Positions 39,996 through 54,132 of a stretch of 64,000 bases of DNA are shown here, in pieces; the stretch's first letter is position 1, and each line of letters starts with the position of its first letter. A program made the position numbers and the translations under genes. Below the pieces are notes generated by a model. It saw nothing but the letters and a program-made list of their open reading frames with translations, was not told the origin of the DNA and did not search any database. Origin of the DNA: Candidatus Krumholzibacteriota bacterium (GTDB taxonomy: Bacteria > Krumholzibacteriota > Krumholzibacteriia > JAJRXK01); the NCBI GenBank assembly GCA_963764625.1, contig CAVXTH010000002.1, forward strand, positions 1 through 64,000. The letters run 5' to 3'.

Positions 39996-40306
39996 TCAGC
40001 CGCGCCACTTTGATAAGAGCCAGAAAAGGGCGGCGGAATTCATGATTGTAATAAGTGATGAAAACAACATCGGACGCTCTTTCCGAAATAGCGATATGCA
40101 TCCCAATATGAACCCTAGTAAAAGAACACCGCCGAAACCGACCAACCCGGCGGCAATACCTTCATAACCCAGAAGATCCTCGGATGGACAAAAAGGGCCG
40201 CACTGATTCGACCAAATGGAAACGCTGCTATCAAACAAGCTAACCCTACGAAAGCAAAACTTGGCTTTTTCAAATAACCGATTACTTGCTCATCATTTTT
40301 TGGCAT
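39996..40306 (-). pseudogene. small membrane-protein cassette (frameshift near 40185)
   Basis: Two overlapping hydrophobic ORFs. The ATG lies inside a GTTATGC core site. Confidence 0.5.
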
Positions 40307-40375
40307 AACGTTGGCTTCACCTGCAAGTGCGGATGGCGAGTTACAGACATCCAGCGAATCAAGCGCCTCTTATTT
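40303..40375. mobile_element. partial attC site
   Basis: GCATAACGTTGGCTTCACCTGCAAG matches the arms at 40812 and 50127. The other arm is degraded. Confidence 0.6.
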
Positions 40376-40533
40376 CGATTCAGCCGTTCCCGACTTACAA
40401 TGTTCGGCAAATGCCAAAACGTGGCCGTCGGAATCCATGCTGTATACCAGAAAACACCGCAAGCCGATCAAGAGTGGACTGACTTCCTTCGCGCCATTTG
40501 CAATTGAACGACTATGATACACTGACGCGTAAT

Positions 40534-40788
40534 CTACGACCGAGTCGACTCGGCGCGAGGTACGCCTGAGGCCGTGGCGGGATCCGGAATCGCCCTGCCG
40601 GTCGCCGACAACTCCCTCCCTGGCATCAAACCCAGATTTCCGCCACTTACCAACGGAAACTCGGTCATGCCCGGGACGTTAAGAATCGGTTCAACACCGA
40701 GTACTGCGCGATAGAATTCACAGCTACGCTCCTGGCTTGAAACGTAGAACACGATAAGCGCTCGATGCACTGGACCCGTCAAAGTCAA
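40534..40788 (-). pseudogene. VOC/glyoxalase cassette, 3' truncated
   Basis: FYVSSQERSCEFY...PILNVPGMTEF...GVPRAE ends prematurely. Confidence 0.6.
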
Positions 40789-40811
40789 TCCTCCGTCAAT
40801 TCCCTACGTCC

Positions 40812-40908
40812 TCATAACGCTGAGTTCACCTGCAAAGACGATTGGCGCGCCCCTCGTCCCACCAGGGTCACAACGAGCGGCTTTGGCAGGTGCAAGCTCC
40901 TGTTAGGC
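40812..40908. mobile_element. attC site (97 bp)
   Basis: TCATAAC...TTCACCTGCAAAG / CTTTGGCAGGTGCAA...GTTAGGC. Confidence 0.85.
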
Positions 40909-40980
40909 AATTCCAAGGTCCAAAGAACGGGTCCAACTGCTGCTCACATCCTCGCAAAGGTTCCATAAGGTCACTGTCAC

Positions 40981-41295
40981 TCATGCTAAAACAGAACTCC
41001 CAAACCGATCGCAAACAGCCCCGGCAAAGCACTCCAGTATCCTATCCTGTTCACCCTTGTCCAAGGCCAGAAGTTCTGCCAACCCAGCTATTTTATCCGC
41101 GTCTAGCTCAGTTAGCAATTCAGCCGGGCATTGATCAATGTCAGCTTGAGTCGAACCACCGCGATAGCCACCTAATTCACAGACTCGAGCAAGCAAGTCA
41201 TCAACTGTTGTGAGCGCCGAAGTCCCTTGTGTGAGTGAGTCGTCGTCACTACAGGCTGATATCAGTAAAAGCAGAAGTCCAACCCCTAGATTCAT
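40981..41295 (-). CDS. hypothetical lipoprotein cassette
   Basis: LLISAC lipobox, located between attC sites. Confidence 0.6.
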   Translation of the reverse strand: MNLGVGLLLLLISACSDDDSLTQGTSALTTVDDLLARVCELGGYRGGSTQADIDQCPAELLTELDADKIAGLAELLALDKGEQDRILECFAGAVCDRFGSSVLA

Positions 41296-41356
41296 TCTTA
41301 GGATTTACATTGTGCCCTCCTACTGAGAAATCATCAACTGCCCAACATTGAGATTT

Positions 41357-41453
41357 GTCTAACGTCTGTTTCAGCTGCAAAGCTGGCTAGCGGACCGTTG
41401 GCCCCGCCGAGGCCGTGACAGATGCGATTGTCGGCTGCAAGCGCTTTTTCGAC
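41357..41453. mobile_element. attC site (97 bp)
   Basis: GTCTAAC...TTCAGCTGCAAAG / TTGTCGGCTGCAA...TTTCGAC. Confidence 0.7.
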
Positions 41454-41475
41454 ACGTTCAGACGGCATGATTGGG

Positions 41476-41859
41476 CTATGAAGTCTGTCCTAGCCAGACG
41501 AGAAATCCGCCACTCAGGACTCGACCACCAACGCACCGGCAATCAACCCTTGTGCGGCGTCGCCCAGCAAGGAAAAAAAGAGTGCCGTCATGCCGTAGGT
41601 GACCGCGCTCATCCAAATGCACCAGCCAGCCTTTGGAGAATGGCGCCTTAGATCCGCTGTCTGAATTACCCCCGCCAACGCGCCGGCGATAATTCCGATG
41701 GGGACCAGCCACGCAACGGGCACTACAATAGCGTCGAACCAGGCCTCCTCTAATAACACATCGAAAGTGAACGGAAGCCCGAACCCGACTATCACACCCC
41801 TCGTGCTCCGCAAACTCATCAGGTGGATTCAGTTTCAAGCCGTTCTCTCCAGCCTCCAA
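41476..41859 (-). pseudogene. membrane protein cassette, probably frameshifted
   Basis: Hydrophobic ORF 41514-41819 overlaps a second frame and lies next to an attC site. Confidence 0.4.
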
Positions 41860-42065
41860 AAACCTCCAGGACTACCGCTGTCTTCCTCTTTGCCGTCCAT
41901 CGTTGAATCTCAAGCGTCTCATCCGTCATCGTTTACCTCCATAACTAAGACCCTGCTATCTTAGCAGCTGTCCAGTCTCAGGGGGGACGCTATACCCGCT
42001 CGCAACGCCACGGGGCTGCGCGATCGTTGGCCTGTGGGGGACACGATGGATATTCCCGCACCAGT

Positions 42066-42971
42066 TTATTTGTTAACAGTGAAATTGAACACATCAGGTC
42101 TTGCATAATGCCCAACTACATCGAACCTGCGTTTTGCAGCAATGATTTCGCTTAAATCGATATCTGCGTATAGGATCAATTCTCTTGAATCTATGGGGCC
42201 AGAAATTATTTCACCTTTTGGATTAATAATGCAACTCTGTCCTTTGCTTATCCATTCTTTCCCTTTTGGGTATATCGTTTTTAATTCTTCGGGTACATCA
42301 TCTATATGCAAGGTCATGCAGTTACTTATGACAAACAAGCCACCTTCTCTTGCAATATGCCGCACACTTTCCAACCAATCATCACCTTGATCCCAAGTTG
42401 GAGAAGCAAGTATTTGAGCTCCAGATTCATAAATTGCATTTCGTGCCAAAGGCATGAAATTTTCCCAACATATAAGGCCACCAATCTTCCCAGCAGATGT
42501 GTCATAGGATTTAAGTGTACTGCCATTTCCTTGGCCCCATATCAACCGTTCACAATTTGTGGGCATTAATTTTCTATGTTTCCCAAGTATTTCACCAGCA
42601 TCATCTATAAATAGAATTGTGTTATAGAGGCTGGAATTACTAGTCTCGGAGTTTCGTTCGTTCATCCCCATGACCACATTGATATTTGCTGACTTTGCCG
42701 CTTCAGAGAGCCTTCTAGTTGTATTGTCGGGAATTGATACCGCATTCTCTACTAGCTTTACATATAGGTCGTTTAGTTGCTCAGTTTGGTTGGCAGGAAT
42801 ACACCATACCCAATCCGGATAACCGGAAATAAACGCTTCGGGAAATACAATTAACTCTGCTCCATTTTTTCCGGCATCTAAAATAGCTGAACATGCTTTG
42901 TCAACCGTTTGTTCCTTGTTCAAAAATACTGGTGTAAGTTGAGCTGCTGCTATTTTTGTTTTCTTAACCAT
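42066..42971 (-). CDS. nitrilase, AT-rich
   Basis: FPEAF, HRKLMPT, ICWEN, GHYARPDVF. DNA is strongly AT-rich. Confidence 0.9.
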   Translation of the reverse strand: MVKKTKIAAAQLTPVFLNKEQTVDKACSAILDAGKNGAELIVFPEAFISGYPDWVWCIPANQTEQLNDLYVKLVENAVSIPDNTTRRLSEAAKSANINVVMGMNERNSETSNSSLYNTILFIDDAGEILGKHRKLMPTNCERLIWGQGNGSTLKSYDTSAGKIGGLICWENFMPLARNAIYESGAQILASPTWDQGDDWLESVRHIAREGGLFVISNCMTLHIDDVPEELKTIYPKGKEWISKGQSCIINPKGEIISGPIDSRELILYADIDLSEIIAAKRRFDVVGHYARPDVFNFTVNK

Positions 42972-43242
42972 GTTGTTCCCTTCTTCTAATTGCCTGCTAC
43001 GCAGGTATATATTCCAGCGCTCCTAACTGTCAACATTAACAGTAAAAGCGCTGGGGCATGTAAATACTCTCCGGGTATTCCAGAACCTCCGTTACGTGAG
43101 TACCACCTCTCCGGCTGATTCGGCCGGTCTGCCGTGAAGACGCATTTCACGAGATCGGCAAGACTCTGCAAATCGGCTCGACCCCGTACTCGCCTCGACT
43201 CCGATACACACCTAACTGCCAGATGCGGAGACCGCATCGAGT

Positions 43243-43707
43243 CTACGCAGTCGGCCGTTGGACATTGCTACGTCCTTCGGGTGGTAAGTCCAACCAGAGA
43301 GCCGTAAGAGACAGGTTAATGTCCCAGAGGAAGAGCAGGAGCGCAGATATGAGGCAGAGCATACAGAGGATGAACGCGATGGAGAGGACAACTCCGACCG
43401 CAAGCTCAAACAAGGCCCCTAGGAACAGGCTGATGATGAGGAACGCCGCGAGAAGGGCGCTGAGGGCCGCGAGGGCAACGCTTGTCCGGACTATTCTTCC
43501 CCTACTCGAGAGAATCCTCAGCTCCGCCAGAATCGTGGCTCGTTGCATTTCGGATGCCCCATGCAGGTCGTAGTTGAGGAGCCGGGATCGGTCGATAACG
43601 CGGCCGAAGCGGTTGGTCATACTCAAGAGGATCAGTCCAATACCCGAAATCAGGATGACCGGACTGATAGAGAGCTGCAGTGTAGGGATGAGGTCAGTGA
43701 GTGACAT
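43243..43707 (-). CDS. DUF2721 domain membrane protein
   Basis: ISPVILISGIGLILLSMTNRFGRVIDRSR. Confidence 0.8.
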   Translation of the reverse strand: MSLTDLIPTLQLSISPVILISGIGLILLSMTNRFGRVIDRSRLLNYDLHGASEMQRATILAELRILSSRGRIVRTSVALAALSALLAAFLIISLFLGALFELAVGVVLSIAFILCMLCLISALLLFLWDINLSLTALWLDLPPEGRSNVQRPTA

Positions 43708-44012
43708 GAAAACCCCCGTCAGCCGCAATGGCTGGTATGTTGATCGTCGGTCGAGCGTGCGGCCTCGCTTCTGCCGGGCCCTACTCTCGGAAATGTCTGG
43801 CGTGAATTCGACCGCCCCATGAAAGGGGCCTGCAAGGAGTCGTCCAGCACCGATACTGACCTTACCCCGCTCGAGGGAACCGAGCAAGTCAATACATTTC
43901 AATGGCTTACAAGACAAGGAAGTCCCCTAAGAAAACGTGATCGATTCCGCTCCGGTTCCGTGCGTCTTCCTCCGAGCGAATTCACCGGACCCGTCTGTGA
44001 AAGGAATTGATC

Positions 44013-45647
44013 ATGAAGACCCCAAAGCGGCTGAGACAACTCTGCGGCTGCCCCCCCTTGTGCCTCCTGACGCTGCTGGCCGGCCTGGCCCTGCTCGGCC
44101 TCGGCTGCAGCAAGAGCGGCCCCACCGATCCCGGCAACACCGACCCGATCGATCCCGCCCAGGTCAACGCCTTCGTCAATGACCTCCCCGACTGGGAGGT
44201 CCCGTCGACGGTAGAGGATCCCCCCGTCGATTTGCCCGACGAGCAGGACCTCGAAGACAACCAGTACTACCGCTGCCATCTCGTGCAGTACGACATGAAG
44301 CGGAACTTCGACAGCATCGTCGCGGTGGGCGCCAACGCGACCGCGCTCAAACCCGGCATGATGGTGCAGGGCAACGGAGTGAAGGACGGCTCGCTGTCGA
44401 CCATCGGCCTGAAGCGCTCGCCGCTGCTATTGTCAGTGAACCTTGCCCTCGATACCCCGTCGCGGCGGGTGGACGTGCCCACCAGCTCGTCGATCCAGGA
44501 CGCGATCGCGTCGCTGCAGCGCGAGGCGGACACGCGACTAGGCTCGCTTCCGGTCGTGCCGGCAATGATCAACTTCAAAGTCCAACAGGCCTACTCGTTC
44601 AGCCAGGCGATGCTATCGGCAGGGATCAGCCTCAACTATGACGCAGTCTTCGCGAACGGCTCGGTCAGCTCGACCTTCAACCAGAATAGCTCGGTAAAGT
44701 CCCAATCGGTCGTCGTGAAACTGCTGCAGCCGATGTACACGATCTCGTTCGCCGACGACGAGATGGCCGAGCCAGGAAACTTCTTTGCCGAGGATGTCAC
44801 CCAGGCCGACTTCGACCGCCAGCGTCAGCTCGGCACGATGGGCCCCGGCAACTTGCCGTGCTACGTGCAGTCGGTCACCTACGGCCGCATGCTCGTCTAC
44901 ACCATGACCTCGACGGAAGCGACCAGCGCCCAGGAGCTCCAGCTCGCCGTGCAGGCATCGTACGGCGCCTGGGAGGGCTCAGGCCACGTCGACAGCCAGC
45001 AGCAGCAACTCGTGAACAACTCGACCATCCAGGTCCAGGTGTTCGGTGGCACGCAGGAGGATCAGCTCGACGCGATCAAAACGGCGCTGCACACCGGTGA
45101 CTTCAGCGCCTTTCTGACGCCGGTGCCAGCAACCACGGCGGTGCCTCTTTCCTATCGCATCAACGACTTGAAGAACCGGCAGCCGGCGGTGATCGGCGAC
45201 GCGACGAAGTTCTCGATTAAAGAGTGCGAAGCCGTCAATGACATGATGTTCACCGTATCGCTGGACAGCATCACTGTCGTCGACGGCTGCACGGACCAGA
45301 CTCTCTTCGACATCGAGAGCTACGTCGACGTCACGGACAACGGCGAGTACTGGCTGATGCACCGGAGCGGTCCTGCCTTCACGCGCGAGGATCTGTTGAA
45401 CGCGTACCACCAGGCCATCTTTACGGTGACGGCGAGTGCCAACACGACGATCACCTTCACGACGAACTTCAACGGCGCCGGCGGTACGCACGACTACCAC
45501 TGGTGGTCGAAGGTAACGACCTTCCAGTATCCATTCGACTTCCCATCAAATCCCCTGCACTTCAGCCATCTCGACACGACGACGAACGATCTGTACGACG
45601 GCTGTACGATGGAGATGCACTACACAATCCAGTGGGAATTGCAGTGA
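44013..45647 (+). CDS. thiol-activated cytolysin (CDC-like) lipoprotein
   Basis: AAGGA RBS, LGLGC lipobox, and CDC core motifs LKPG, RSPLLLSVNL, YTISF, NFF...YVQSVTYGR, FGG and VPLSY...LKN. Confidence 0.85.
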   Translation: MKTPKRLRQLCGCPPLCLLTLLAGLALLGLGCSKSGPTDPGNTDPIDPAQVNAFVNDLPDWEVPSTVEDPPVDLPDEQDLEDNQYYRCHLVQYDMKRNFDSIVAVGANATALKPGMMVQGNGVKDGSLSTIGLKRSPLLLSVNLALDTPSRRVDVPTSSSIQDAIASLQREADTRLGSLPVVPAMINFKVQQAYSFSQAMLSAGISLNYDAVFANGSVSSTFNQNSSVKSQSVVVKLLQPMYTISFADDEMAEPGNFFAEDVTQADFDRQRQLGTMGPGNLPCYVQSVTYGRMLVYTMTSTEATSAQELQLAVQASYGAWEGSGHVDSQQQQLVNNSTIQVQVFGGTQEDQLDAIKTALHTGDFSAFLTPVPATTAVPLSYRINDLKNRQPAVIGDATKFSIKECEAVNDMMFTVSLDSITVVDGCTDQTLFDIESYVDVTDNGEYWLMHRSGPAFTREDLLNAYHQAIFTVTASANTTITFTTNFNGAGGTHDYHWWSKVTTFQYPFDFPSNPLHFSHLDTTTNDLYDGCTMEMHYTIQWELQ

Positions 45648-45789
45648 CCGGATCTTGGACGATCGGCGGGCCCGACGGGTCCGGGACGGTCCGCCGCGCG
45701 GACGGGGGCGGCCAAGCGTCGCCCCCGCTGCGTAGCCGACCCAATGAAAATACTCTAGTATTCCATCTACCCCCTCTGGAAGGTGGACG

Positions 45790-46353
45790 ATGGATCCCGA
45801 TCGCGCCGAGATCACCTCCCTGCTGTTGGAGCTGTCCGGCAACAACCGCGGGACCGTTGACGCCCTCATGCCGCTCGTCTACGACTCTCTCCACGGCATC
45901 GCCCGCCGCCAGCTCAGCTTAGAGCGTCGCGACCACACACTGGCGCCAACCGCACTGGTCCACGAGGCCTACCTGAAGCTCATCGACCAGGACCGCGTCC
46001 GCTGGCAAAACCGGGCCCATTTCTACGCGATCGCCGCGCGCGCCATGCGCCGCATCCTCGTCAACCACGCCCGCGACCGCCTCGCGCAGAAGCGCGGCGG
46101 TGGCCTGGTCACGGTGACTTTCGACGAGGAGTTGGCCCCCGCCGTTACGGGCCCCGAGGAGATGCTGGCGCTCGAGGACGCCCTGATTCGCCTGCAGGAG
46201 CGCGACCCACGCCGCGCCCAGGTGGTCGAGTGCCGCTTCTTCGGCGGCCTGACGCACGAGGAGATCGCAGAGGCACTCGGTGTGTCCGTGCCCACGGTGC
46301 AGCGCGACTGGCGCTTCGCCCGAGCCTGGCTCGCTAAGGAGCTGGCCTCGTGA
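45790..46353 (+). CDS. ECF sigma factor, Ser/Thr-kinase-associated type
   Basis: HTLAPTALVHEAYLKL, AMRRILVNHAR, KRGG, RFFGGL, RDWRFARAWL. Confidence 0.9.
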   Translation: MDPDRAEITSLLLELSGNNRGTVDALMPLVYDSLHGIARRQLSLERRDHTLAPTALVHEAYLKLIDQDRVRWQNRAHFYAIAARAMRRILVNHARDRLAQKRGGGLVTVTFDEELAPAVTGPEEMLALEDALIRLQERDPRRAQVVECRFFGGLTHEEIAEALGVSVPTVQRDWRFARAWLAKELAS

Positions 46354-49300
46354 GCGACTCGCACTGGGATCGTCTCGAGGCGCTGTTCGAAGCCGCCTGT
46401 GCTCTACCACCGGGGGAGAGAGACGCATTCCTGGAACGCGAATGTGGCGATGACCTCGGCCTGCGCGACGAAGTGCAGTCGCTGCTCGACGCCGACCGGT
46501 CGAGTAACCACCTACTGGACGGCAGCGCGCTGGACCTCGCTCCTCCGCTCGCGGCTCCGCTGACCCCTGGCCGCCAGATCGGTCCCTACCGCGTGACCGC
46601 CGAGCTCGGCGAGGGCGGTATGGGAGCGGTATACCTGGCCGAGCGCTGCGACGGACAGTTCGAGCAGCGCGTGGCGCTGAAGGTCGTCCGTTTCGGCCTG
46701 GCGTCTCCCACGCTGGTGCGCCGGTTCGGGGAGGAGCGGCAGATCCTCGCACGCCTGGAGCATCCCGGCATCGCGCGGCTGCTCGACGGCGGTGTCACCG
46801 ACGGCGGCCTGCCCTGGTTCAGCATGGAGTACGTCGAGGGCGAGCCGATCGACCGCTGGTGCGACCGCCGTGGCCTCGGCGTCCGCACGCGCCTCGAGCT
46901 TTTCGCCGCGGTCTGCGACGCTGTCCAATACGCGCAGAACAACCTGGTGGTTCACCGCGACCTCAAGCCCAGCAATATCCTGGTGACCGGCGACGGCGCC
47001 GTAAAGCTGCTGGATTTCGGCATCGCGAAGCTGGTCGCGACCAACTCCGAGGTCGATGATCGCGCCCTGCGCACCCTCACGGCTGCTCCGTTGATGACCG
47101 CCAGCTACGCGGCGCCCGAGCAGCTGCTCGGTGGGCGCATCACCACCGCCACCGACGTCTATGCGCTAGGGATGGTGCTCTACGAGCTGCTGGCCGGTGG
47201 TCGTGCCTACGAGGTGGCCGGCCTCACCCCGACCCAGCTCGAGCGTACGGTTTGCGTTGATACCCCGGCGCGGCCAAGCTCCACGGTCCGCGATTCGCGC
47301 CGGCGCCGGCACGTGGCCGGCGACCTCGACAACATCTGCCTCAAGGCGCTGGCCAAGGAACCCGAGCGCCGCTACGCAACCGCCGGCCAGCTCGGCGAGG
47401 ACATCCGCCTGCACCTGTCCGGCCTGCCGGTACGCGCGCGACCGGCGACCTTCGGTTATCTCGCTCGCAAGGCGATACGGCGCTACCGTCCCCAGCTTAC
47501 CGTTGCCGCCGCCGCGCTCGCCGTGTTGATCGTCCTGGGCGCCTGGTTCACGCACCGCATCGCGCACGAGCGCGACCTGGCGCGACGCGAGGCCGCGCGC
47601 ACGACTCAGGTCGCGAAGTTTCTGTCCTCGCTGTTCCGGGTGTCAGACCCCGAGGAGGCGCGCGGGGAAGACATCAGCGCACGCGAACTGCTCCAGCGTG
47701 GCGCCGCCCGGGTAGGCACCGAGCTGGCGGGGCAGCCGGACTTGCAGGCCACGATGGACGGCGTCCTGGGCAACGTTTACCTGAATCTGGGCCTGCACGA
47801 GGAGTCCGACAGCTTGCTCACCCGCGCCGTGGCGTTGAATCAGAAGCTGAACGTGCGTGACGGACCGGAGTACGCCGAGCAGCTCGCGAACTTGGGCCAA
47901 CTCCGCGTGGAGCAAGGACGGTATGCGGACGCCGACTCCGTGCTGACGGCGGCTCTGACCATCCAGCGGCGTGATCGCCGGCTCGAGGACACGCGCATCG
48001 CCGCGACGATGGTCTCGCTCGGGCACGTCATGGACTTGACGGGGGATTACGCGCGCGCGGAGACGCTCTACCGCGAGGCCATCGCCGTCTGCAAGGCGTC
48101 GCCGAAGCCCGACGAGCTCCGGCTCTCGACCGCCATGGGCGCGTTGGCGCTGGAACTCTTGGATCGCGACCAGCTGGACGAATCCGAGAATCTGTTCCGC
48201 GAGACTCTGGCGCTGCAGCGTCGCACTCTCGGCGAAGACCACCCCGAGGTCGCCACCACCCTGTTCAACCTCGGGTTGTTGCTGAGTAACCGCGGCGACT
48301 TCGCCGGTGCGGAGAAAATCCAGCGTGAGACCATGGCGCTGGACCGTAAGCTCTACGGCGAGGAACATCCCAACGTCGCCTATGATCTGAACAATCTCGC
48401 GTTCCTCGAGCGGCAGAAAGGCAATTTCGCGGAGGCCGAATCGGTGGCGCGCCAGGCCTTGGCGATGCGGCGCAAGCTTCTAGGTGACGACCATCCTCAA
48501 ACGATCGAGACCGAGGCAAACCTCGCGCAGATCCTCCAGTCTCGAGGCGAGTACGCCGCGGCTACCCAGCTGGCCCACAAAGTGCTGGACGCGAAGACCC
48601 GCATCTATGGCAGCGACAGTCCGGCTCTGTGCGCCGCCATGAACCAATTCGGCTGGTTCCTCTACGACCTGGGACGGTTCGCTGAGGCAGACTCACTCCA
48701 CCGTCGTTCACTCGCGCTCGGCATCGAGAAGCTGGGAGCAGACCACAAGTCCGTCGCGATCAGCCGCCTGCAGCTCGCGCGCGACCTCGTTGCCGAGCAC
48801 CAGCTGGCTGCGGCCGATAGCGTTCTGCAACCGGGCCTGGCGGCGGCCCGCCGTCTTTACGGAGACAGCAACATCTTTACCGCCGCCTTCCACATGGAGG
48901 AGGGAAGGATTCGTCTCGAGCAGGGACGCCTTAGCGCCGCGCTGACCGAAACCCGCACCGCGATGGCAGTCGCGGACAGCAGGGAGAAGGGCAGCCCTCG
49001 CCGCGCGGGGGCTCTGCTGCTGACGGCGGAAATCCAGCACGAGCAGGGGCACGCCGCCTCCGCCGATAGCCTCTACCGCGAAGCGACGCGGATCCGCGAA
49101 CTCACCGTTCCCGCCAGCCATCCGGAGGCGGCGTGGATCAGGCTACGCCACGGAGCACTGCAGCTCGAGCAAGGCAAGGTCGCGACGGCTCGCACCCTGA
49201 TCGTACCGGCAGCGGAGGCGCTGGCGAAGGCGCTGCCGCCCGATCACTGGCGGGTCGCTTACGCCCGGACCCTGGCGGCCGCCTGCCACCTGGACACGCG

Positions 49301-49406
49301 CGAACCCGGGGCCCGAGCGGAACTCGTCTCGGGGCGTGCGCGGGTCGCGGCGGACCTGGGAGCTGACAATCGCCTGGTGAAGGCGCTTGCCCGGATTTCC
49401 GATTAG
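46350..49406 (+). CDS. membrane Ser/Thr protein kinase with TPR domain
   Basis: GEGGMGAVY, VALK, HRDLKPSN, DFG and APE, then one TM helix and LGEDHP-type TPRs. GTGA overlap with the ECF gene. Confidence 0.92.
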   Translation: MSDSHWDRLEALFEAACALPPGERDAFLERECGDDLGLRDEVQSLLDADRSSNHLLDGSALDLAPPLAAPLTPGRQIGPYRVTAELGEGGMGAVYLAERCDGQFEQRVALKVVRFGLASPTLVRRFGEERQILARLEHPGIARLLDGGVTDGGLPWFSMEYVEGEPIDRWCDRRGLGVRTRLELFAAVCDAVQYAQNNLVVHRDLKPSNILVTGDGAVKLLDFGIAKLVATNSEVDDRALRTLTAAPLMTASYAAPEQLLGGRITTATDVYALGMVLYELLAGGRAYEVAGLTPTQLERTVCVDTPARPSSTVRDSRRRRHVAGDLDNICLKALAKEPERRYATAGQLGEDIRLHLSGLPVRARPATFGYLARKAIRRYRPQLTVAAAALAVLIVLGAWFTHRIAHERDLARREAARTTQVAKFLSSLFRVSDPEEARGEDISARELLQRGAARVGTELAGQPDLQATMDGVLGNVYLNLGLHEESDSLLTRAVALNQKLNVRDGPEYAEQLANLGQLRVEQGRYADADSVLTAALTIQRRDRRLEDTRIAATMVSLGHVMDLTGDYARAETLYREAIAVCKASPKPDELRLSTAMGALALELLDRDQLDESENLFRETLALQRRTLGEDHPEVATTLFNLGLLLSNRGDFAGAEKIQRETMALDRKLYGEEHPNVAYDLNNLAFLERQKGNFAEAESVARQALAMRRKLLGDDHPQTIETEANLAQILQSRGEYAAATQLAHKVLDAKTRIYGSDSPALCAAMNQFGWFLYDLGRFAEADSLHRRSLALGIEKLGADHKSVAISRLQLARDLVAEHQLAAADSVLQPGLAAARRLYGDSNIFTAAFHMEEGRIRLEQGRLSAALTETRTAMAVADSREKGSPRRAGALLLTAEIQHEQGHAASADSLYREATRIRELTVPASHPEAAWIRLRHGALQLEQGKVATARTLIVPAAEALAKALPPDHWRVAYARTLAAACHLDTREPGARAELVSGRARVAADLGADNRLVKALARISD

Positions 49407-49421
49407 AGAGAGTCGCCCCCC

Positions 49422-50036
49422 TCAACTCTTTTTCGCTACAACATGAAAAATCTGCCAGTGCTTTGGTTTTCGCAGCTCCGGCGGGTCATCTTTCTCTTCT
49501 TCGTTCAACAACTCGATGTCGAAGCCTTTCAATAGCTCAAAAAGCTCTTCCTGAGAGTGGTGAGTCCGACCGGGGAGCGACGCCCATGTGTCGCGGTCCC
49601 CGAAGAACTGACCAGCGAACCGTCCCCCTGGACGGATCGCCGTTACGATCCGGCCCCAAAGTGATGGAAAGTGCGCCTGCCTGCAGAACGGCAAGGCAAA
49701 GCTCGCATTCACCAGGTCGCAGTCGGGAACCTGCATCTCCGCGAAGTCCACCTCCACTGTAGTCAGCCGCGGCTTCAGCTCCGTACGCACGCGGGGCAGC
49801 AGGAGCCTGAACGAATCCGGGTGGCCATCCGTCGCCACCACCCGCCAGCCACGTTCGAGCAGCTCCAGCGTGTCCCGTCCCTCGCCCGCAGCAATGTCGA
49901 TTGCGAGCCCCTCGGTGAGGCCCTCCCGTGCGAACAAGTCCAGCGCCTCAATCAGCGTCTCGCGCGCCCCTTTTCCCAGGACCGACCCGAAGTACCCCGG
50001 CCAGTCTTCTGCCTCAGAATAGTCCTGCGACTTCAT
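49422..50036 (-). CDS. class I SAM-dependent methyltransferase (TehB-like) cassette
   Basis: IDIAAGEGRD, NASFALPF, GGRFAGQFFG, KHWQIFHVVA. Confidence 0.85.
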   Translation of the reverse strand: MKSQDYSEAEDWPGYFGSVLGKGARETLIEALDLFAREGLTEGLAIDIAAGEGRDTLELLERGWRVVATDGHPDSFRLLLPRVRTELKPRLTTVEVDFAEMQVPDCDLVNASFALPFCRQAHFPSLWGRIVTAIRPGGRFAGQFFGDRDTWASLPGRTHHSQEELFELLKGFDIELLNEEEKDDPPELRKPKHWQIFHVVAKKS

Positions 50037-50126
50037 GGACGGAAAACCCAGGTCGTTCGAGCGTTTTGGCTCTAGCATCCATCCCCTCCAATACGCAGTG
50101 GATACCCCGCGATGCCTACCGACGCT

Positions 50127-50224
50127 CTCTAAGGTTGGCTTCAGCTGCAAGCGTGGCTGGCGCCAACCTGGCGCATGCCAGGTGCGTGCTAGGCGGCTTT
50201 GTCGGGTGCAAACTCCTGTTAGCT
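50127..50224. mobile_element. attC site (98 bp)
   Basis: CTCTAAG...TTCAGCTGCAAG / TTTGTCGGGTGCAA...GTTAGCT. Contains the stop codon of the upstream gene. Confidence 0.8.
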
Positions 50225-50815
50225 GGCAACACCACTAACCACAACATCCGCCCTTTCGTCAGGCTTATGCGCCTCTACGTACCGATCTTCACTTGGCATC
50301 CAGTTTTGTTCCCATGTCTCCCGATAAGCTTCTCCATCGCGTGCGATTCCTCGGCTCAACCGCAAGTGACGTGGGCAGTCGACCCAAATACGTAGATCGT
50401 ACAGCGCTGCCAACTCGCGGCGGCTAGAAGATACACCTTCAACAATGACTATGGCCCCAGGAGAGACTTCCAGAGTCTCCGCCAAAACGTCCTCCGTCCA
50501 GTCATACCTAGCAAAGCGGGCAACGTCCCCCCGACGAAGGGGGGCGAGAACTTGATCGCGGAGACGTTTCCAATCGAAATTGCCACCAATTGGTTTCTCG
50601 ACAACCGCTCCTTTTGGTTGAAGCGATGAAGGCAGGTAAAAATCGTCGAAGTGGACGATCTCTGCACGCCGACCGGTCGCTTCCAACTCCGAAGCACAGG
50701 CAGCCGCAAACGTAGATTTGCCAGCGCCACCTTTCCCGTCGACGGCAAGTAGTACCGTCGAGCAACCGGTGTCCATGGCTACAATCCGCTGAACAACTTC
50801 AGACGCTTGGTTCAT
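50219..50815 (-). CDS. uridine kinase-like P-loop protein cassette
   Basis: DGKGGAGKST, HFDDFY, IVEGV, RGIARDG. Confidence 0.85.
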   Translation of the reverse strand: MNQASEVVQRIVAMDTGCSTVLLAVDGKGGAGKSTFAAACASELEATGRRAEIVHFDDFYLPSSLQPKGAVVEKPIGGNFDWKRLRDQVLAPLRRGDVARFARYDWTEDVLAETLEVSPGAIVIVEGVSSSRRELAALYDLRIWVDCPRHLRLSRGIARDGEAYRETWEQNWMPSEDRYVEAHKPDERADVVVSGVAS

Positions 50816-50828
50816 CGATCCCCTGCCC

Positions 50829-50937
50829 AGCTAACGCGTTCGCTCAGCTGCGAGGCCCCTTGGCGGGTCAGGTGCTGAGCCACAATCCTTCGATGCCCCT
50901 AGTCTGCACCCGAAGCACCTGGCATGACAAGGGGCCG
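50829..50937. mobile_element. long-type attC site, one arm deleted
   Basis: AGCTAAC...GCTCAGCTGCGAGGCCCC. Near-copy of 53998-54132. Confidence 0.7.
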
Positions 50938-51236
50938 GCTGGAAGATTGGTGACGCCGCAGACTTCTTGGAGCTGACCACCGAGGAAGTCGCATTCATCG
51001 AAAGGAAGCTGGCGTTGAGTAGAAGCCTGCGGCAGGAACGCGAGAAACAGGGAATTACCCAGGTCGCGTTGGCAAAACTCATCAGTTCAAGTCAGTCATG
51101 TGTGGCAAAGATGGAAGCTGGAGACTCAAGTGTGACGATCGACCTGCTGATGCGAGCCCTACTGGCTCTCGGATTGACGAAGAAAGACCTGTCAAAGATT
51201 GTCGCGAGGGCAGACCATATCGCGACCGCTGTCTAA
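50937..51236 (+). pseudogene. XRE-family HTH antitoxin, 5' truncated
   Basis: GWKIGDAADFLEL...TQVALAKLISSSQSCVAKME. Oriented opposite to the cassettes. Confidence 0.7.
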
Positions 51237-51330
51237 CGTCGGGGATCAGCTGCAGGCGAAAGTGGCGCGCGCTTTGCGTATGCAAAGGGCGTGAGAACCG
51301 CTCCTGGCGGTTCGGCGGTCAGCGGCAATT
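51231..51330. mobile_element. attC site, degenerate
   Basis: GTCTAACGTCGGGGATCAGCTGCAGG arm resembles the other sites. Confidence 0.55.
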
Positions 51331-51844
51331 AGTCGTGCCACTCGGCGGGCGGTCTTCCAAGCCAGACCCAAGCGATGTAGTCCACGAATGGAGGCTCGCC
51401 TCCTACCTCTCGGAGCCGGCGATTGATCTGCCCACGATGGTACGTGCAGTGCGAGACCACCTGATAGAGCGTCTCACCCAGCGTGGTCGGCGCCGGCGAT
51501 CGGCCGAGTCGCTCCCCTATTCGGCTCGCCCACGGCAGGTCCAGCCGTGAATTCAGGTCGTTGTCCCTGAGTTCGCGGATGAACGCGGCTGCGGAACGGT
51601 AATAGGCTTGAGCCCACCCATGGAGCCCTTCATACGTAGTGAGTTGCTCTGCCGCCGACATATCCAGCGGTTCGTGGCGCCACACCATCATAAAAGCGCG
51701 CTGAGCCGAATGGAGATGCAAGAGCGTATCGAAGAGCGCCGGGTCGCGCGCACCGGATTGCGCCGCCCGGATTTCTTTCCAGACGAGCGAGTCGGCCCAT
51801 TCCATGTGCTCGTACAGGTCTTTTAGCAACGTCAATGTCATCAC
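51329..51844 (-). CDS. DinB family protein
   Basis: HMEWAD, LLHLHSAQ, HCTYHRGQ. Confidence 0.9.
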   Translation of the reverse strand: MMTLTLLKDLYEHMEWADSLVWKEIRAAQSGARDPALFDTLLHLHSAQRAFMMVWRHEPLDMSAAEQLTTYEGLHGWAQAYYRSAAAFIRELRDNDLNSRLDLPWASRIGERLGRSPAPTTLGETLYQVVSHCTYHRGQINRRLREVGGEPPFVDYIAWVWLGRPPAEWHD

Positions 51845-52169
51845 AATTCAACTCGACCCAAGAAGGCTACGGTTTGATACACACCAGCCGACGCATTCGA
51901 GTCGGCCTCAGCGACACCTAACTTGAATTATGCGGTGCACGTCCTCACGAACACGCCCGCTAGTTCCAGAACTCTCACCACTTCTTGTTTCGCCGTCGTT
52001 CCTCTTCCGCTTCTTCATCTGTCTCGATCTCCGCACCGGCTCGCCCCCGATCCATCCTGAGCATACAACAATCACGCCAAATTTGCCCGACATCCCCGGT
52101 TCGATCCAGCGAGATATTGGGGAGAGCGACCGGTGCCATTATGAACAGCTGGCACGATCGACGAGTGGT

Positions 52170-52682
52170 TCATTCGGCCTGTGGAAGCGACCGGACGTAT
52201 GATGCCCAGTTCTCCGGTAACCTTTCTTGGCCGGTAATCTCCAGGAAGCGTTCGACCGTCACAGACACTTCTCGAAAGCGGGCAGAGGCGACCAGCTCGC
52301 CGTTTTCGCCCCTCGCCTCTGCGTAAACGATCATGGAGTTTCCGGTTTCGGGTCGTTCAACCACCTCTCCACTTAGCATGAGTTTCTCGGAGGTCTTGCC
52401 AGGATGATGATAGGTTGTCTCCGCAGATTGAAGGAGCCAGATCCTTTCGGCCTGCCCTGCAGCTGTCATGGCCACCCAAGTCGAAAGGCAATCCAGGACA
52501 GTGAAGATTGCCCCACCATGAACTACTCCTGGAAATCCCGCCATTTCTTCGGTCGGCTTGAATGATCCGAGTAGCCTGGTTGGCACATCTTTATCTTTGA
52601 ATACCTCAATCCTAAGACCCTTAGGATTCTCGTGCCCACATCCAAAGCAAGTATTTCCTTGGAGCAGCTCTAGGTTCAGCAA
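52170..52682 (-). CDS. PaaI family thioesterase
   Basis: CFGCGHENPKGL, GFPGVVHGG...LD. Confidence 0.85.
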   Translation of the reverse strand: MLNLELLQGNTCFGCGHENPKGLRIEVFKDKDVPTRLLGSFKPTEEMAGFPGVVHGGAIFTVLDCLSTWVAMTAAGQAERIWLLQSAETTYHHPGKTSEKLMLSGEVVERPETGNSMIVYAEARGENGELVASARFREVSVTVERFLEITGQERLPENWASYVRSLPQAE

Positions 52683-52775
52683 TCCAGATGTTATCCCTGT
52701 CTCACTTTCTCCTCAGATGGGTGATCGTTGGCCAACGAGGGGTGCGGTAAACCAACACCCATTCTTACGCGCTCT

Positions 52776-52865
52776 CCCTAACGTTCCCGCGCTCAGCCGT
52801 GGGCATGGCATGATTTCCAAACAGCTAGCAGCCGGCGGCCTGTCGGCTGCAGCGGCATGTTAGGC
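52776..52865. mobile_element. attC site (90 bp)
   Basis: CCCTAAC...GCTCAGCCG / CGGCTGCAGC...GTTAGGC. Confidence 0.85.
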
Positions 52866-52890
52866 GGCTCGTTCCCTCTTAGGGCCTTAC

Positions 52891-53529
52891 TCATTCACGT
52901 AGCTCGGTCTCCCGATGTGAACGGGCTAGACTCCCGAAGTAAAGGCAATAGAGTTCATGGCTCTTACCCAAATAGAGCCTCTGCCGCTCGTGCATTGGCA
53001 ACCCCCTAAGCTCACGAGTATCTATGAACGGTGGCAGGACGATAGCCACGTCCGGAGTCAATCCCAAAGCCCTCTCAAGTAACACGTCCGAAGGGGGCTG
53101 CGTATTCGATCGACGGAACCGATAGACATGGCTGGGACCGCTCGCAGCCCAATCCGGATCGAGAAAAGCCGCATCAAGCTCTGGGCATGCATCCAGTGTG
53201 CCCTCGTCCAGCACGTCCCCCAAGACAAATGTAACCTGACTTATCAACCCAGCTTTCTCAACGTTTTGACGGGCCTGCGCCTGATACATCGGATTGATCT
53301 CAATCGTCACCACCTGAGCCGCCTCTCGTGCGAGCGCAATAGTCGTGAAACCGGCACCTGTACACGTCTCAAGCATCCGCCGACCCGTGAAGCGCACAGC
53401 CATGTGCTTCGCGAATCGACGGTCAATCCCCATTGTGTAAGCCTGGGTGTTCGCGACGTAGTCACCTCCAAACTTCGCACGGACTCTTTCAGGGTCCACA
53501 ATCATCCCATCACCTCGGCCAGCATTCAT
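52891..53529 (-). CDS. SAM-dependent methyltransferase, Tgs1/RsmD-like, cassette
   Basis: ETCTGAGFTTIALA, TIEIN, FLDPDW. Confidence 0.7.
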   Translation of the reverse strand: MNAGRGDGMIVDPERVRAKFGGDYVANTQAYTMGIDRRFAKHMAVRFTGRRMLETCTGAGFTTIALAREAAQVVTIEINPMYQAQARQNVEKAGLISQVTFVLGDVLDEGTLDACPELDAAFLDPDWAASGPSHVYRFRRSNTQPPSDVLLERALGLTPDVAIVLPPFIDTRELRGLPMHERQRLYLGKSHELYCLYFGSLARSHRETELRE

Positions 53530-53578
53530 TGCCGCCTAACTTGAATTGAGCTGCTCGAGTTTATTGTAGGATCTCCCA

Positions 53579-53983
53579 TCAATCCGAACCTACCCGCGAC
53601 GTAGGATCTCTGCAATCCCCCGCATGACCTTGTGCCACGGCGAGATCGAGCGCTGTTTTCCCATGGAAACCGTACGCGCCTGTTCCCCGGATTTCTTTGT
53701 CAGCCCCCGAGGCCACCAGAACTCGCACGATTTCTTCATGACCGCCAATGACGGCTAACATGAGGGCGCTCAGGTGATACTTCGCCGTGTGATTTAGGTC
53801 GGCATCATGTTCTATCAGAAAGCGAACGACATCGGTGTGGCCTCTGTGTGAGGCGATCATGAGCACGGTCTGGCCATGCCGGTCGCGCGCGTCAATGTCA
53901 GCACCCTTAAGAAGAAGATCCTGCAAAGCACCAACATCAGAGGCTTCAGTAGCAGTTTCCCAAGGGTTGTCCAAGTTACTCAT
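53579..53983 (-). CDS. ankyrin repeat protein cassette
   Basis: GQTVLMIAS..GH..VV..L, SALMLA..GH, GKTALDLA. Confidence 0.85.
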   Translation of the reverse strand: MSNLDNPWETATEASDVGALQDLLLKGADIDARDRHGQTVLMIASHRGHTDVVRFLIEHDADLNHTAKYHLSALMLAVIGGHEEIVRVLVASGADKEIRGTGAYGFHGKTALDLAVAQGHAGDCRDPTSRVGSD

Positions 53984-53997
53984 TCTCGGAGAAGTCA

Positions 53998-54132
53998 GCC
54001 TAATGTGTACGCTCAGCAGCGAGGCCCCATTGGCGGGGCAGCTCCTAAGCCTGAATCCTTCGATAGCTCTAGTCTGCCCCCAAAGCACCTGGCGTGACAA
54101 GGGGTCTTGGCTGCTGGAGCGGAGGGCTAGAC
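53998..54132. mobile_element. long-type attC site (135 bp)
   Basis: GCCTAAT...GCTCAGCAGC / GCTGCTGGAGC...GCTAGAC. Contains the stop codon of the upstream ORF. Confidence 0.75.

Follow-up and report, generated by a model that had tools for sequence, protein, structure and literature searches.

A cytolysin-like lipoprotein gene recurrently paired with an ECF43-type sigma factor and a transmembrane Ser/Thr kinase in Krumholzibacteriota

In this study, we analysed a window of 64,000 nucleotides (positions 1 to 64,000 of contig CAVXTH010000002.1, assembly GCA_963764625.1, Candidatus Krumholzibacteriota bacterium), in which three co-oriented genes at 44013-49406 on the plus strand encode a lipoprotein resembling the cholesterol-dependent cytolysins (CDCs), a sigma factor of the extracytoplasmic function (ECF) class and a transmembrane Ser/Thr kinase. 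The genome belongs to an uncultured sediment bacterium (3.57 Mb, 96% complete). The flanking open reading frames (43243-43917, and 49422-50150 and onward) lie on the minus strand. The G+C content was 0.61-0.70 at 44-50 kb, compared with 0.41-0.56 at 40-44 kb and 0.55-0.59 at 50-54 kb. The initial annotation of this stretch had described a GC-rich block opposite in strand to its surroundings, and the reading frames and base composition bore out this description. Contigs of one public metagenome run, which may be the window's own source, spanned 42933-44984, 45344-47685 and 47895-49514. These contigs bridged both edges of the block as well as the gene 1/2 and gene 2/3 junctions, indicating that the block was joined to both flanks.

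The first gene (44013-45647, with the frame open from 44007) encodes a protein of 544 amino acids from the ATG at 44013, which is preceded at a distance of 7 nt by the ribosome-binding site AAAGGA (44000-44005), kept as GAAAGGA in genome G094. The predicted signal peptide (44013-44108) carries a lipobox-like LGLG-Cys32 motif. Cys32 was invariant in 22 aligned homologs, and a hydrophobic stretch followed by a Cys was observed in nearly all of the 91 family members with N-termini shown. The core of CDC domains 1-3 (residues 96-402; 44298-45218) matched PF01289 (Thiol_cytolysin) with an E of 3.7e-27, and no other Pfam family reached E <= 0.01 in this protein. The motifs of the CDC core proposed in the initial annotation were all found, at residues 113-115 ((K)PG), 257-258 (FF), 290-292 (YGR), 344-346 ((F)GG) and 378-381 (PLSY), and Y290, G291, R292, F344, G345 and G346 were invariant in the same 22 homologs. 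The F/Y-F/Y-Xn-YGR motif marks the wider CDC/CDC-like (CDCL) family (PMC7527733; this and the other papers given by PMC number are cited from excerpts). The window protein combined this motif (FF257-258, YGR290-292) with a CDC-type core and a non-CDC C-terminus.

To compare the protein with known structures, a profile of the 22 homologs was searched against the PDB. It matched 25 CDC chains, with E from 4.4e-29 (listeriolysin O) to 1e-17 (streptolysin O, 2e-17), whereas the Bacteroidota/Elizabethkingia CDC-like chains scored more weakly, from 6e-9 (8g32) to 9e-7. By profile score, the window protein was therefore nearer to the CDCs than to the Bacteroidota CDCLs. An AlphaFold2 model of the protein had a mean predicted local distance difference test (pLDDT) score of 72.9. 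In Foldseek, the model matched 4cdb (listeriolysin O) at E 3.6e-22; listeriolysin O, perfringolysin O, pneumolysin and others were matched at E 1e-22 to 1e-17, and perforin at E 1.6e-7. The CDC fold that had been proposed from the letters alone was thus recovered both by the Pfam match (PF01289) and on modelling. No PF17440 match, undecapeptide or domain 4 was found in the protein. Because domain 4, with the undecapeptide and the cholesterol-recognition motif, was absent, we filed the protein as CDC-like rather than as a CDC. It further differs from listeriolysin O, perfringolysin O and pneumolysin in its C-terminus and in being a lipoprotein of a Gram-negative-type phylum.

In the place of CDC domain 4, the protein carries a C-terminal beta-sandwich (45231-45644). 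The last 150 residues, modelled alone, gave a pLDDT of 87.3, and the best Foldseek matches of this domain were C2 domains, with the C2 domain of cPLA2 at the top (E 2.1e-4). In a wide, exhaustive VIA-align search, nearly all of the 50 rows shown were C2 domains, with a best Z of 8.8 and a Z of 8.2 for the perforin C2 domain (4y1s), although the tool rates a Z of about 8 as middling. We consider the domain likely to be C2-like, an assignment that is not settled. In its layout, with a MACPF/CDC-superfamily core ahead of a C2-like beta-sandwich, the protein resembles perforin, to which it has no sequence relation. Regarding the N-terminus, in most family members the Cys was followed by S or G and an acidic run (CSSDD, CGGDD), while the window protein reads CSKSGPTD. 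The CSSDD/CGGDD-type N-termini presumably recall the surface-export signal of Bacteroidota lipoproteins.

Only one PF01289 gene was found in the whole genome (96% complete), which indicated that the product of gene 1 is a single-component protein. The genes neighbouring the block were unrelated small genes, according to Pfam searches of 15 neighbouring open reading frames. The two-component CDCLs of Bacteroidota (EaCDCL, and BfCDCL with BcdI) consist of a long/short pair with an immunity lipoprotein (PMC11169675), as the initial annotation had stated. Protease activation and a shared operon for the two components are further traits of that group. The window protein shares with them the CDC-like core, the lipoprotein signal and a non-CDC C-terminal domain (PMC7527733, PMC11169675). 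It differs in that its gene is single, with no short partner and no immunity lipoprotein in the operon.

The second gene (45790-46353, plus strand) encodes a sigma factor of 187 amino acids, which scored 222.9 bits against TIGR02999 (cut-off 126.15) and E 2.6e-55 against PF07638. These two models were used as proxies for membership of the ECF43 group, with which we take them to be equivalent. The protein carries HTLAPTALVHEAY where canonical ECFs carry acidic residues, and its predicted phospho-acceptor, Thr54 (45949-45951), lies in an APTA motif that was placed by eye. In ECF43 sigma factors, the phosphorylated Thr lies in a QTTA/STTA consensus (PMC13147305, PMC8999054). Thr54 of APTA corresponds to this position as judged by eye, not via an alignment with EcfK or EcfP.

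The third gene (46350-49406, plus strand; 1018 amino acids) overlaps the sigma stop codon by 4 nt (GTGA), with AAGGAG 7 nt upstream. The product begins with an N-terminal extension (46350-46574), followed by a kinase domain (46587-47378; Pkinase E 1.8e-36, residues 80-343), one hydrophobic transmembrane helix (residues 383-400; 47496-47549) and a tetratricopeptide repeat (TPR) region of eight TPR_12 stretches after this helix (about 47757-49349). The catalytic motifs were complete (GEGGMG, ALK, HRDLKPSN, DFG and APE). The translationally coupled pair of an ECF sigma and a transmembrane TPR kinase described in the initial annotation was confirmed by these matches and by the overlap. The best PDB match of the kinase was 9EED (E 2.8e-54, query residues 4-353); PknB of Mycobacterium tuberculosis scored E 3e-45. 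9EED is PknS 1-364, a kinase that phosphorylates the ECF43 sigma factor EcfK (depositors' paper; PMC13147305), and the alignment takes in the N-terminal extension highlighted in that paper. Together with the TIGR02999 score, this match identified the two regulators as ECF43/PknS-type. No anti-sigma family was found among the Pfam matches of the 15 neighbouring open reading frames. Elsewhere in the window's own genome (G000:C6:435293-435839), a TIGR02999-type sigma was detected in two frames (123.9 and 61.8 bits) beside a kinase gene, which is likely a frameshifted copy of another sigma-kinase cassette.

A G+C-rich hairpin without a U tract (45688-45741, plus strand) lies between the CDC-like and sigma genes. 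The segment 45640-45760 folded at -60.1 kcal/mol (z -1.81), and the stem was kept in G094 through changes on both stem sides, a comparison of two sequences only. As a lead, the hairpin may attenuate read-through or stabilise the upstream transcript. A scan of 43200-50200 called no T-tailed or intrinsic terminator between the genes, and no sigma-70-like promoter was found in the same interval.

To evaluate whether the three genes belong together, we searched 208 genomes of the phylum for relatives of gene 1 (E <= 1e-10), retrieved the DNA around each match, to a limit of about 9 kb per side, and located TIGR02999-type sigmas and kinases in the fetched loci by tblastn. Relatives of gene 1 were present in 59 of the 208 genomes and in none of the four genomes of the same genus. 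Five loci (L137, L152, L155, L163 and L170) were left out because they gave no tblastn match of at least 45 bits with the window protein, leaving 96 CDC-like genes in the 59 genomes. Among these, 24 lay at most 1000 nt from an ECF43-type sigma or its kinase, mostly less than 130 nt, and seven more lay at 1.2-7.1 kb. When only genes flanked by 4.5 kb or more in both directions were counted, the adjacent fraction was 17/46. The adjacency was found in 21 of the 59 genomes and in 10 of 21 genera, in four gene orders: CDCL-sigma-kinase (six cases, including the window and G094), convergent (14), divergent (three) and sigma-kinase-CDCL (one). When 91 CDC-like proteins were placed on a tree, those with linked genes were spread over several distinct clades, and linkage changed state 11 times or more; since these counts come from related genomes, they describe the data and do not test it. 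The window's 3.57 Mb genome holds only four to five TIGR02999-type sigmas, so that chance adjacency was estimated at well below 1% per gene. The pairing of the CDC-like gene with the sigma-kinase pair is no chance event. The initial annotation had left it to be seen whether homologs would ever be syntenic with such pairs, and a conserved neighbourhood was observed in these 24 cases.

The closest copy of the whole block was in G094, which belongs to a different family, in the same order and with 76, 79 and 61% identity for the three proteins. The flanking DNA gave matches of only 27-103 nt with the four genomes of the same genus, so an empty site could not be demonstrated. The copy in G094, the base composition and the absence from congeners suggest that the block may move as a unit. 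Outside the phylum, 10 CDC-like loci (L032-L041), several of them on short contigs, gave no match to a sigma or kinase scoring more than 50 bits, and a single locus matched in the TPRs only. The FlgD_ig/type IX secretion-tail proteins found near orthologs were considered as a specific partner and rejected, as they cluster only via a common C-terminal tail. Two orthologs showed altered frames. In G093 (L088, 9176-11932, plus strand), the frame covers 918 amino acids from the first start codon (942 stop to stop) and continues past the usual end into a Gly/Arg-rich extension, either a fusion or a lost stop codon. In G189 (L090, 9821-11426, plus strand), the ortholog is split into two frames near residue 350, probably by a frameshift or assembly error, and the convergent sigma-kinase pair is kept.

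Upstream of gene 1, we found a conserved promoter-like element, which we named P1 (43936-43966, plus strand; CGTGATC-N19-GCGTC). It comprises TGATC (43938-43942), a 19-nt spacer and GCGTC (43962-43966), ends 46 nt before the ATG and lies inside the 43920-44012 region that the initial annotation had put forward for a reporter. In the upstream alignment with G094, CGTGATCG and GCGTCT were kept while the rest drifted, and 10 of 16 orthologs shared T(G/T)ATC-N19-GCGT(C/T) without gaps. The spacing was identical in 13 P1 sites. A two-block layout with fixed spacing and a CGT-containing downstream block is typical of ECF promoters. We then counted TGATC-N19-GCGT[CT] in the fetched DNA and in 83 upstream windows of 220 nt, with 13 of the 96 genes omitted for want of a recognisable lipobox. 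The motif occurred 29 times in 2 x 1.35 Mb and in 12 of the 83 windows against 0.19 expected, an enrichment that is partly circular because the motif was discovered and counted on the same loci. The sites lay 32-70 nt before start codons; L151 is the exception, its frame being open from nearly the site itself.

P1 was not confined to close relatives of gene 1. It preceded CDC-like genes only 25-29% identical to the window's (L151, L154, L101 and L112; 25-28% for L151 and L154), two sigma genes (L178 and L179) beside the window's sigma clade and, in G093 and G128, an unrelated lipoprotein gene of about 200 amino acids directly upstream of the sigma-kinase pair (L176 and L177). This lipoprotein (L176, 8817-9422, plus strand; L177, 9499-10089, minus strand) is conserved, belongs to no known family and showed no similarity to the CDC-like protein; P1 lies 38-45 nt upstream of its gene. 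In the window's genome, the P1 pattern gave 34 matches, and 31 of the 33 other than the site before gene 1 fell inside open frames of at least 200 codons, which would fit a one-promoter regulon. No genome-wide enrichment was seen, with 21 matches against 27-32 for five scrambled or re-spaced controls and 1 for the sixth.

To relate the element to its possible reader, a tree of 48 sigmas was built. The window sigma fell into a clade of 16 (SH-aLRT 86, a moderate value from a quick search), which contained exactly the P1 cases named above, those with distant CDC-like genes and those with the lipoprotein of about 200 amino acids. P1 was found within 7 kb of 10 of the 16 sigmas in this clade, compared with four of the 32 outside, and the misses were mostly on contigs ending early. 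A second clade (10 rows) had a motif of its own, TGCAC-N17-CGCA[TC], in 8 of 10 compared with 2 of 38 outside. These results indicated that P1 is a candidate promoter element, conserved and following a sigma clade. Members of the window's clade also occur apart from CDC-like genes: in G115, G173, G093, G128 and G107, same-clade sigma-kinase pairs had no CDC-like gene within about 9 kb (profile A1). A third sigma clade stands convergent to three-gene operons (L169, 8264-14387, minus strand; L140, 5309-11750, minus strand; L167; L160), which encode a protein of about 700 amino acids with no known identity, a Big_5/PKD protein of about 700 amino acids and then a CDC-like protein. The last is about 610 amino acids long, belongs to a separate CDC-like clade and has a weak ConA-like/Laminin_G_3 match at its C-terminus. 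No promoter motif was found for these third-clade operons.

The regulatory pair resembles two studied systems, and the background on phosphorylation-activated ECFs given in the initial annotation agreed with the papers describing them. In Xanthomonas citri, EcfK/PknS, an ECF43 sigma with a Hanks-type kinase, controls a type VI secretion system (T6SS) against amoebae (PMC13147305). The likeness extends to an ECF43-type sigma beside a transmembrane kinase with an N-terminal extension, kinase domain, transmembrane helix and periplasmic TPRs, to a Thr in the region 2.2 motif and to a regulated cargo encoded beside the pair. The window's cargo differs in being one predicted pore-forming lipoprotein gene instead of a secretion system, in another phylum, and its TPR region covers about 600 residues compared with three repeats in PknS. 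In the EcfP/PknT system of Vibrio parahaemolyticus, phosphorylation of the second Thr in an STTA motif activates EcfP, a sigma without the DAED motif, and the output is polymyxin resistance (PMC8999054). The window sigma has APTA at the matching place by eye, and its proposed output is a different one.

The genes and their folds, their recurrent adjacency and a bipartite element linked to a sigma clade are thus in place. Because a sensor kinase and a sigma stand beside the gene and the pairing recurs in the phylum, the pore-former is probably signal-gated. We think it reasonably probable that the locus is a sigma/kinase cassette gated by phosphorylation, that it acts locally, and probably exclusively, on the neighbouring gene for the CDC-like lipoprotein, and that the pore-former would probably be made only on an outside signal. 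By homology with EcfK/PknS and EcfP/PknT, the kinase, with its N-terminal extension and kinase domain in the cytoplasm, one transmembrane helix and about 600 residues of extracytoplasmic TPRs, would respond to an envelope or external cue via the TPR region. It would then phosphorylate Thr54, in region 2.2 of an ECF43-type sigma that would be inactive by itself, and so enable the sigma to bind core RNA polymerase. The comparative data suggest that the sigma would start transcription at P1 (43938-43966), with gene 1 as its main or only target. As a member of its family, the product would be exported as a lipoprotein and would oligomerise into beta-barrel pores in a foreign membrane, which might be recognised via the C2-like domain and not via a cholesterol-binding domain 4. 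Transcription reading through the hairpin could add feedback to the sigma and kinase genes.

Several observations weigh against this reading. No sigma-kinase pair was found within about 9 kb on the kinase side of the orthologs in G107, G115, G173, G020, G123 and G093 (57-65% identity), and the G022 ortholog had only two kinase-less sigma matches 6.4 kb off. Six of the 16 orthologs, from three genera, carried another pair of blocks, TGCGC(A/G)...CGCAT. For 43 of the 45 sigma genes examined, either none of the three motifs or only another one was seen upstream, and P1 was absent before most of them, which leaves autoregulation without backing. The sigma clade that P1 follows is moderately supported, and the enrichment figures are descriptive, P1 having been discovered and counted on the same, related loci. 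No RNA run was listed for 43800-49500. As to the toxin itself, neither an immunity lipoprotein nor a second CDC-like component was seen in the genome PF01289 search or among the neighbouring open reading frames, and CDC-type rings could form only once a lipid-anchored monomer had been released or delivered in vesicles. The self-contained three-gene module proposed in the initial annotation accordingly stood in part: its synteny with ECF-kinase pairs recurred, but six orthologs lacked the pair and the same sigma clade stood beside non-CDC-like cargo. On comparative grounds, the module is a sensor cassette with exchangeable lipoprotein cargo and not a fixed three-gene unit.

The exchangeable cargo bears on a rather unlikely alternative, in which the pair controls its neighbour and the CDC-like lipoprotein has a role other than that of a toxin used in attack, acting on the cell's own envelope (vesicle release or programmed lysis) or serving as a ligand or co-sensor of the TPR region that closes a feedback loop. 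The same sigma clade and P1 precede the small unrelated lipoproteins in G093 and G128, so that the cargo may be defined as a lipoprotein rather than as a toxin; TPR domains bind proteins, and an immunity gene is missing. However, the D1-D3 pore-forming core and its signature motifs were invariant across the family, which indicates selection for pore formation, and a C2-like membrane-binding domain is attached, as in perforin. The characterised relatives were all toxins in the excerpts of PMC7527733 and PMC11169675.

It is distinctly unlikely that P1 is read by another regulator or a different alternative sigma while the ECF-kinase pair controls genes elsewhere. Such an arrangement would account for the P1 carried by orthologs without a nearby pair (G107, G173 and G093) and for its absence upstream of most sigma genes. 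However, these three genomes hold a same-clade sigma elsewhere (L179, L175 and L176), P1 tracks the sigma clade across unrelated cargo while a second clade has its own motif, and the two-block layout, fixed spacing and position of P1 are those typical of an ECF promoter. That the three genes are neighbours only through a common variable, horizontally acquired patch, with no functional link, is very improbable and already disfavoured. In its favour, the block has a higher G+C content than the DNA around it, none of the four same-genus genomes has the CDC-like gene or conserved flanks, and the nearest whole-block copy is in another family. Against it, the 24/96 adjacency, far above the estimated chance rate, recurs in four different gene orders, in several clades of CDC-like proteins and in three of sigmas, and G000 and G094 each received the block as one unit.

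We know of no regulation or role established for CDC-like proteins outside Bacteroidota. Literature searches, as far as the excerpts they returned reach, gave no paper linking a CDC-family protein to an ECF/kinase pair; the excerpts of the CDCL papers (PMC7527733, PMC11169675) contained no "kinase", and "sigma" only as a supplier's name, and the part of the ECF classification paper that was available had no "cytolysin". In the cited literature, again in excerpt, the outputs of ECF43/kinase pairs were limited to T6SS and polymyxin resistance (PMC13147305, PMC8999054). What is new is the class of cargo of this ECF43/kinase cassette and, for a CDC-like protein, both the regulatory context and the perforin-like arrangement of domains. 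The proposed wiring of kinase, sigma, 31-nt promoter-like element and pore-former could be rebuilt in Escherichia coli with four parts, and it points to a weapon, for defence or antagonism, in a phylum for which metagenomes are the only source. The sigma clades with distinct motifs bear on the evolution of ECF specificity and offer orthogonal expression switches, and the CDC core with a C2-like domain echoes the perforin architecture. We further propose, tentatively and as the less probable outcome, that Krumholzibacteriota carry portable sense-and-strike cassettes, each with a phospho-activated ECF43 sigma and its TPR kinase, in which private promoters (P1, P2 and others) drive perforin-like pore-forming lipoproteins and the sigma-promoter pairs have evolved apart to act as mutually insulated channels. 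If so, one cell could deploy separate pore-formers in answer to separate outside signals, for instance grazing protists or rival bacteria, the phylum would hold a natural set of orthogonal kinase-sigma-promoter triplets, and signal-gated regulation would be described for the first time in a CDC-superfamily toxin outside Firmicutes.

Regarding the surroundings of the block, the 40-54 kb region consists of small unrelated genes (DUF2721, methyltransferases, uridine-kinase-like, HTH, DinB, thioesterase and ankyrin). At 42066-42971 on the minus strand, a gene for a nitrilase-type carbon-nitrogen hydrolase lies in a patch of 41% G+C in a genome of about 60% and looks separately acquired. No tRNA or Rfam family was found in 40000-54000. 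The summed contig depth at 51752-52135 reached 151x, 35x and 101x in three runs, compared with about 2-10x nearby, and loose ends were numerous at 52040-52055. By blastn this stretch was unique in the genome, and it contained no tRNA or Rfam match; it may be common to other, more abundant organisms.

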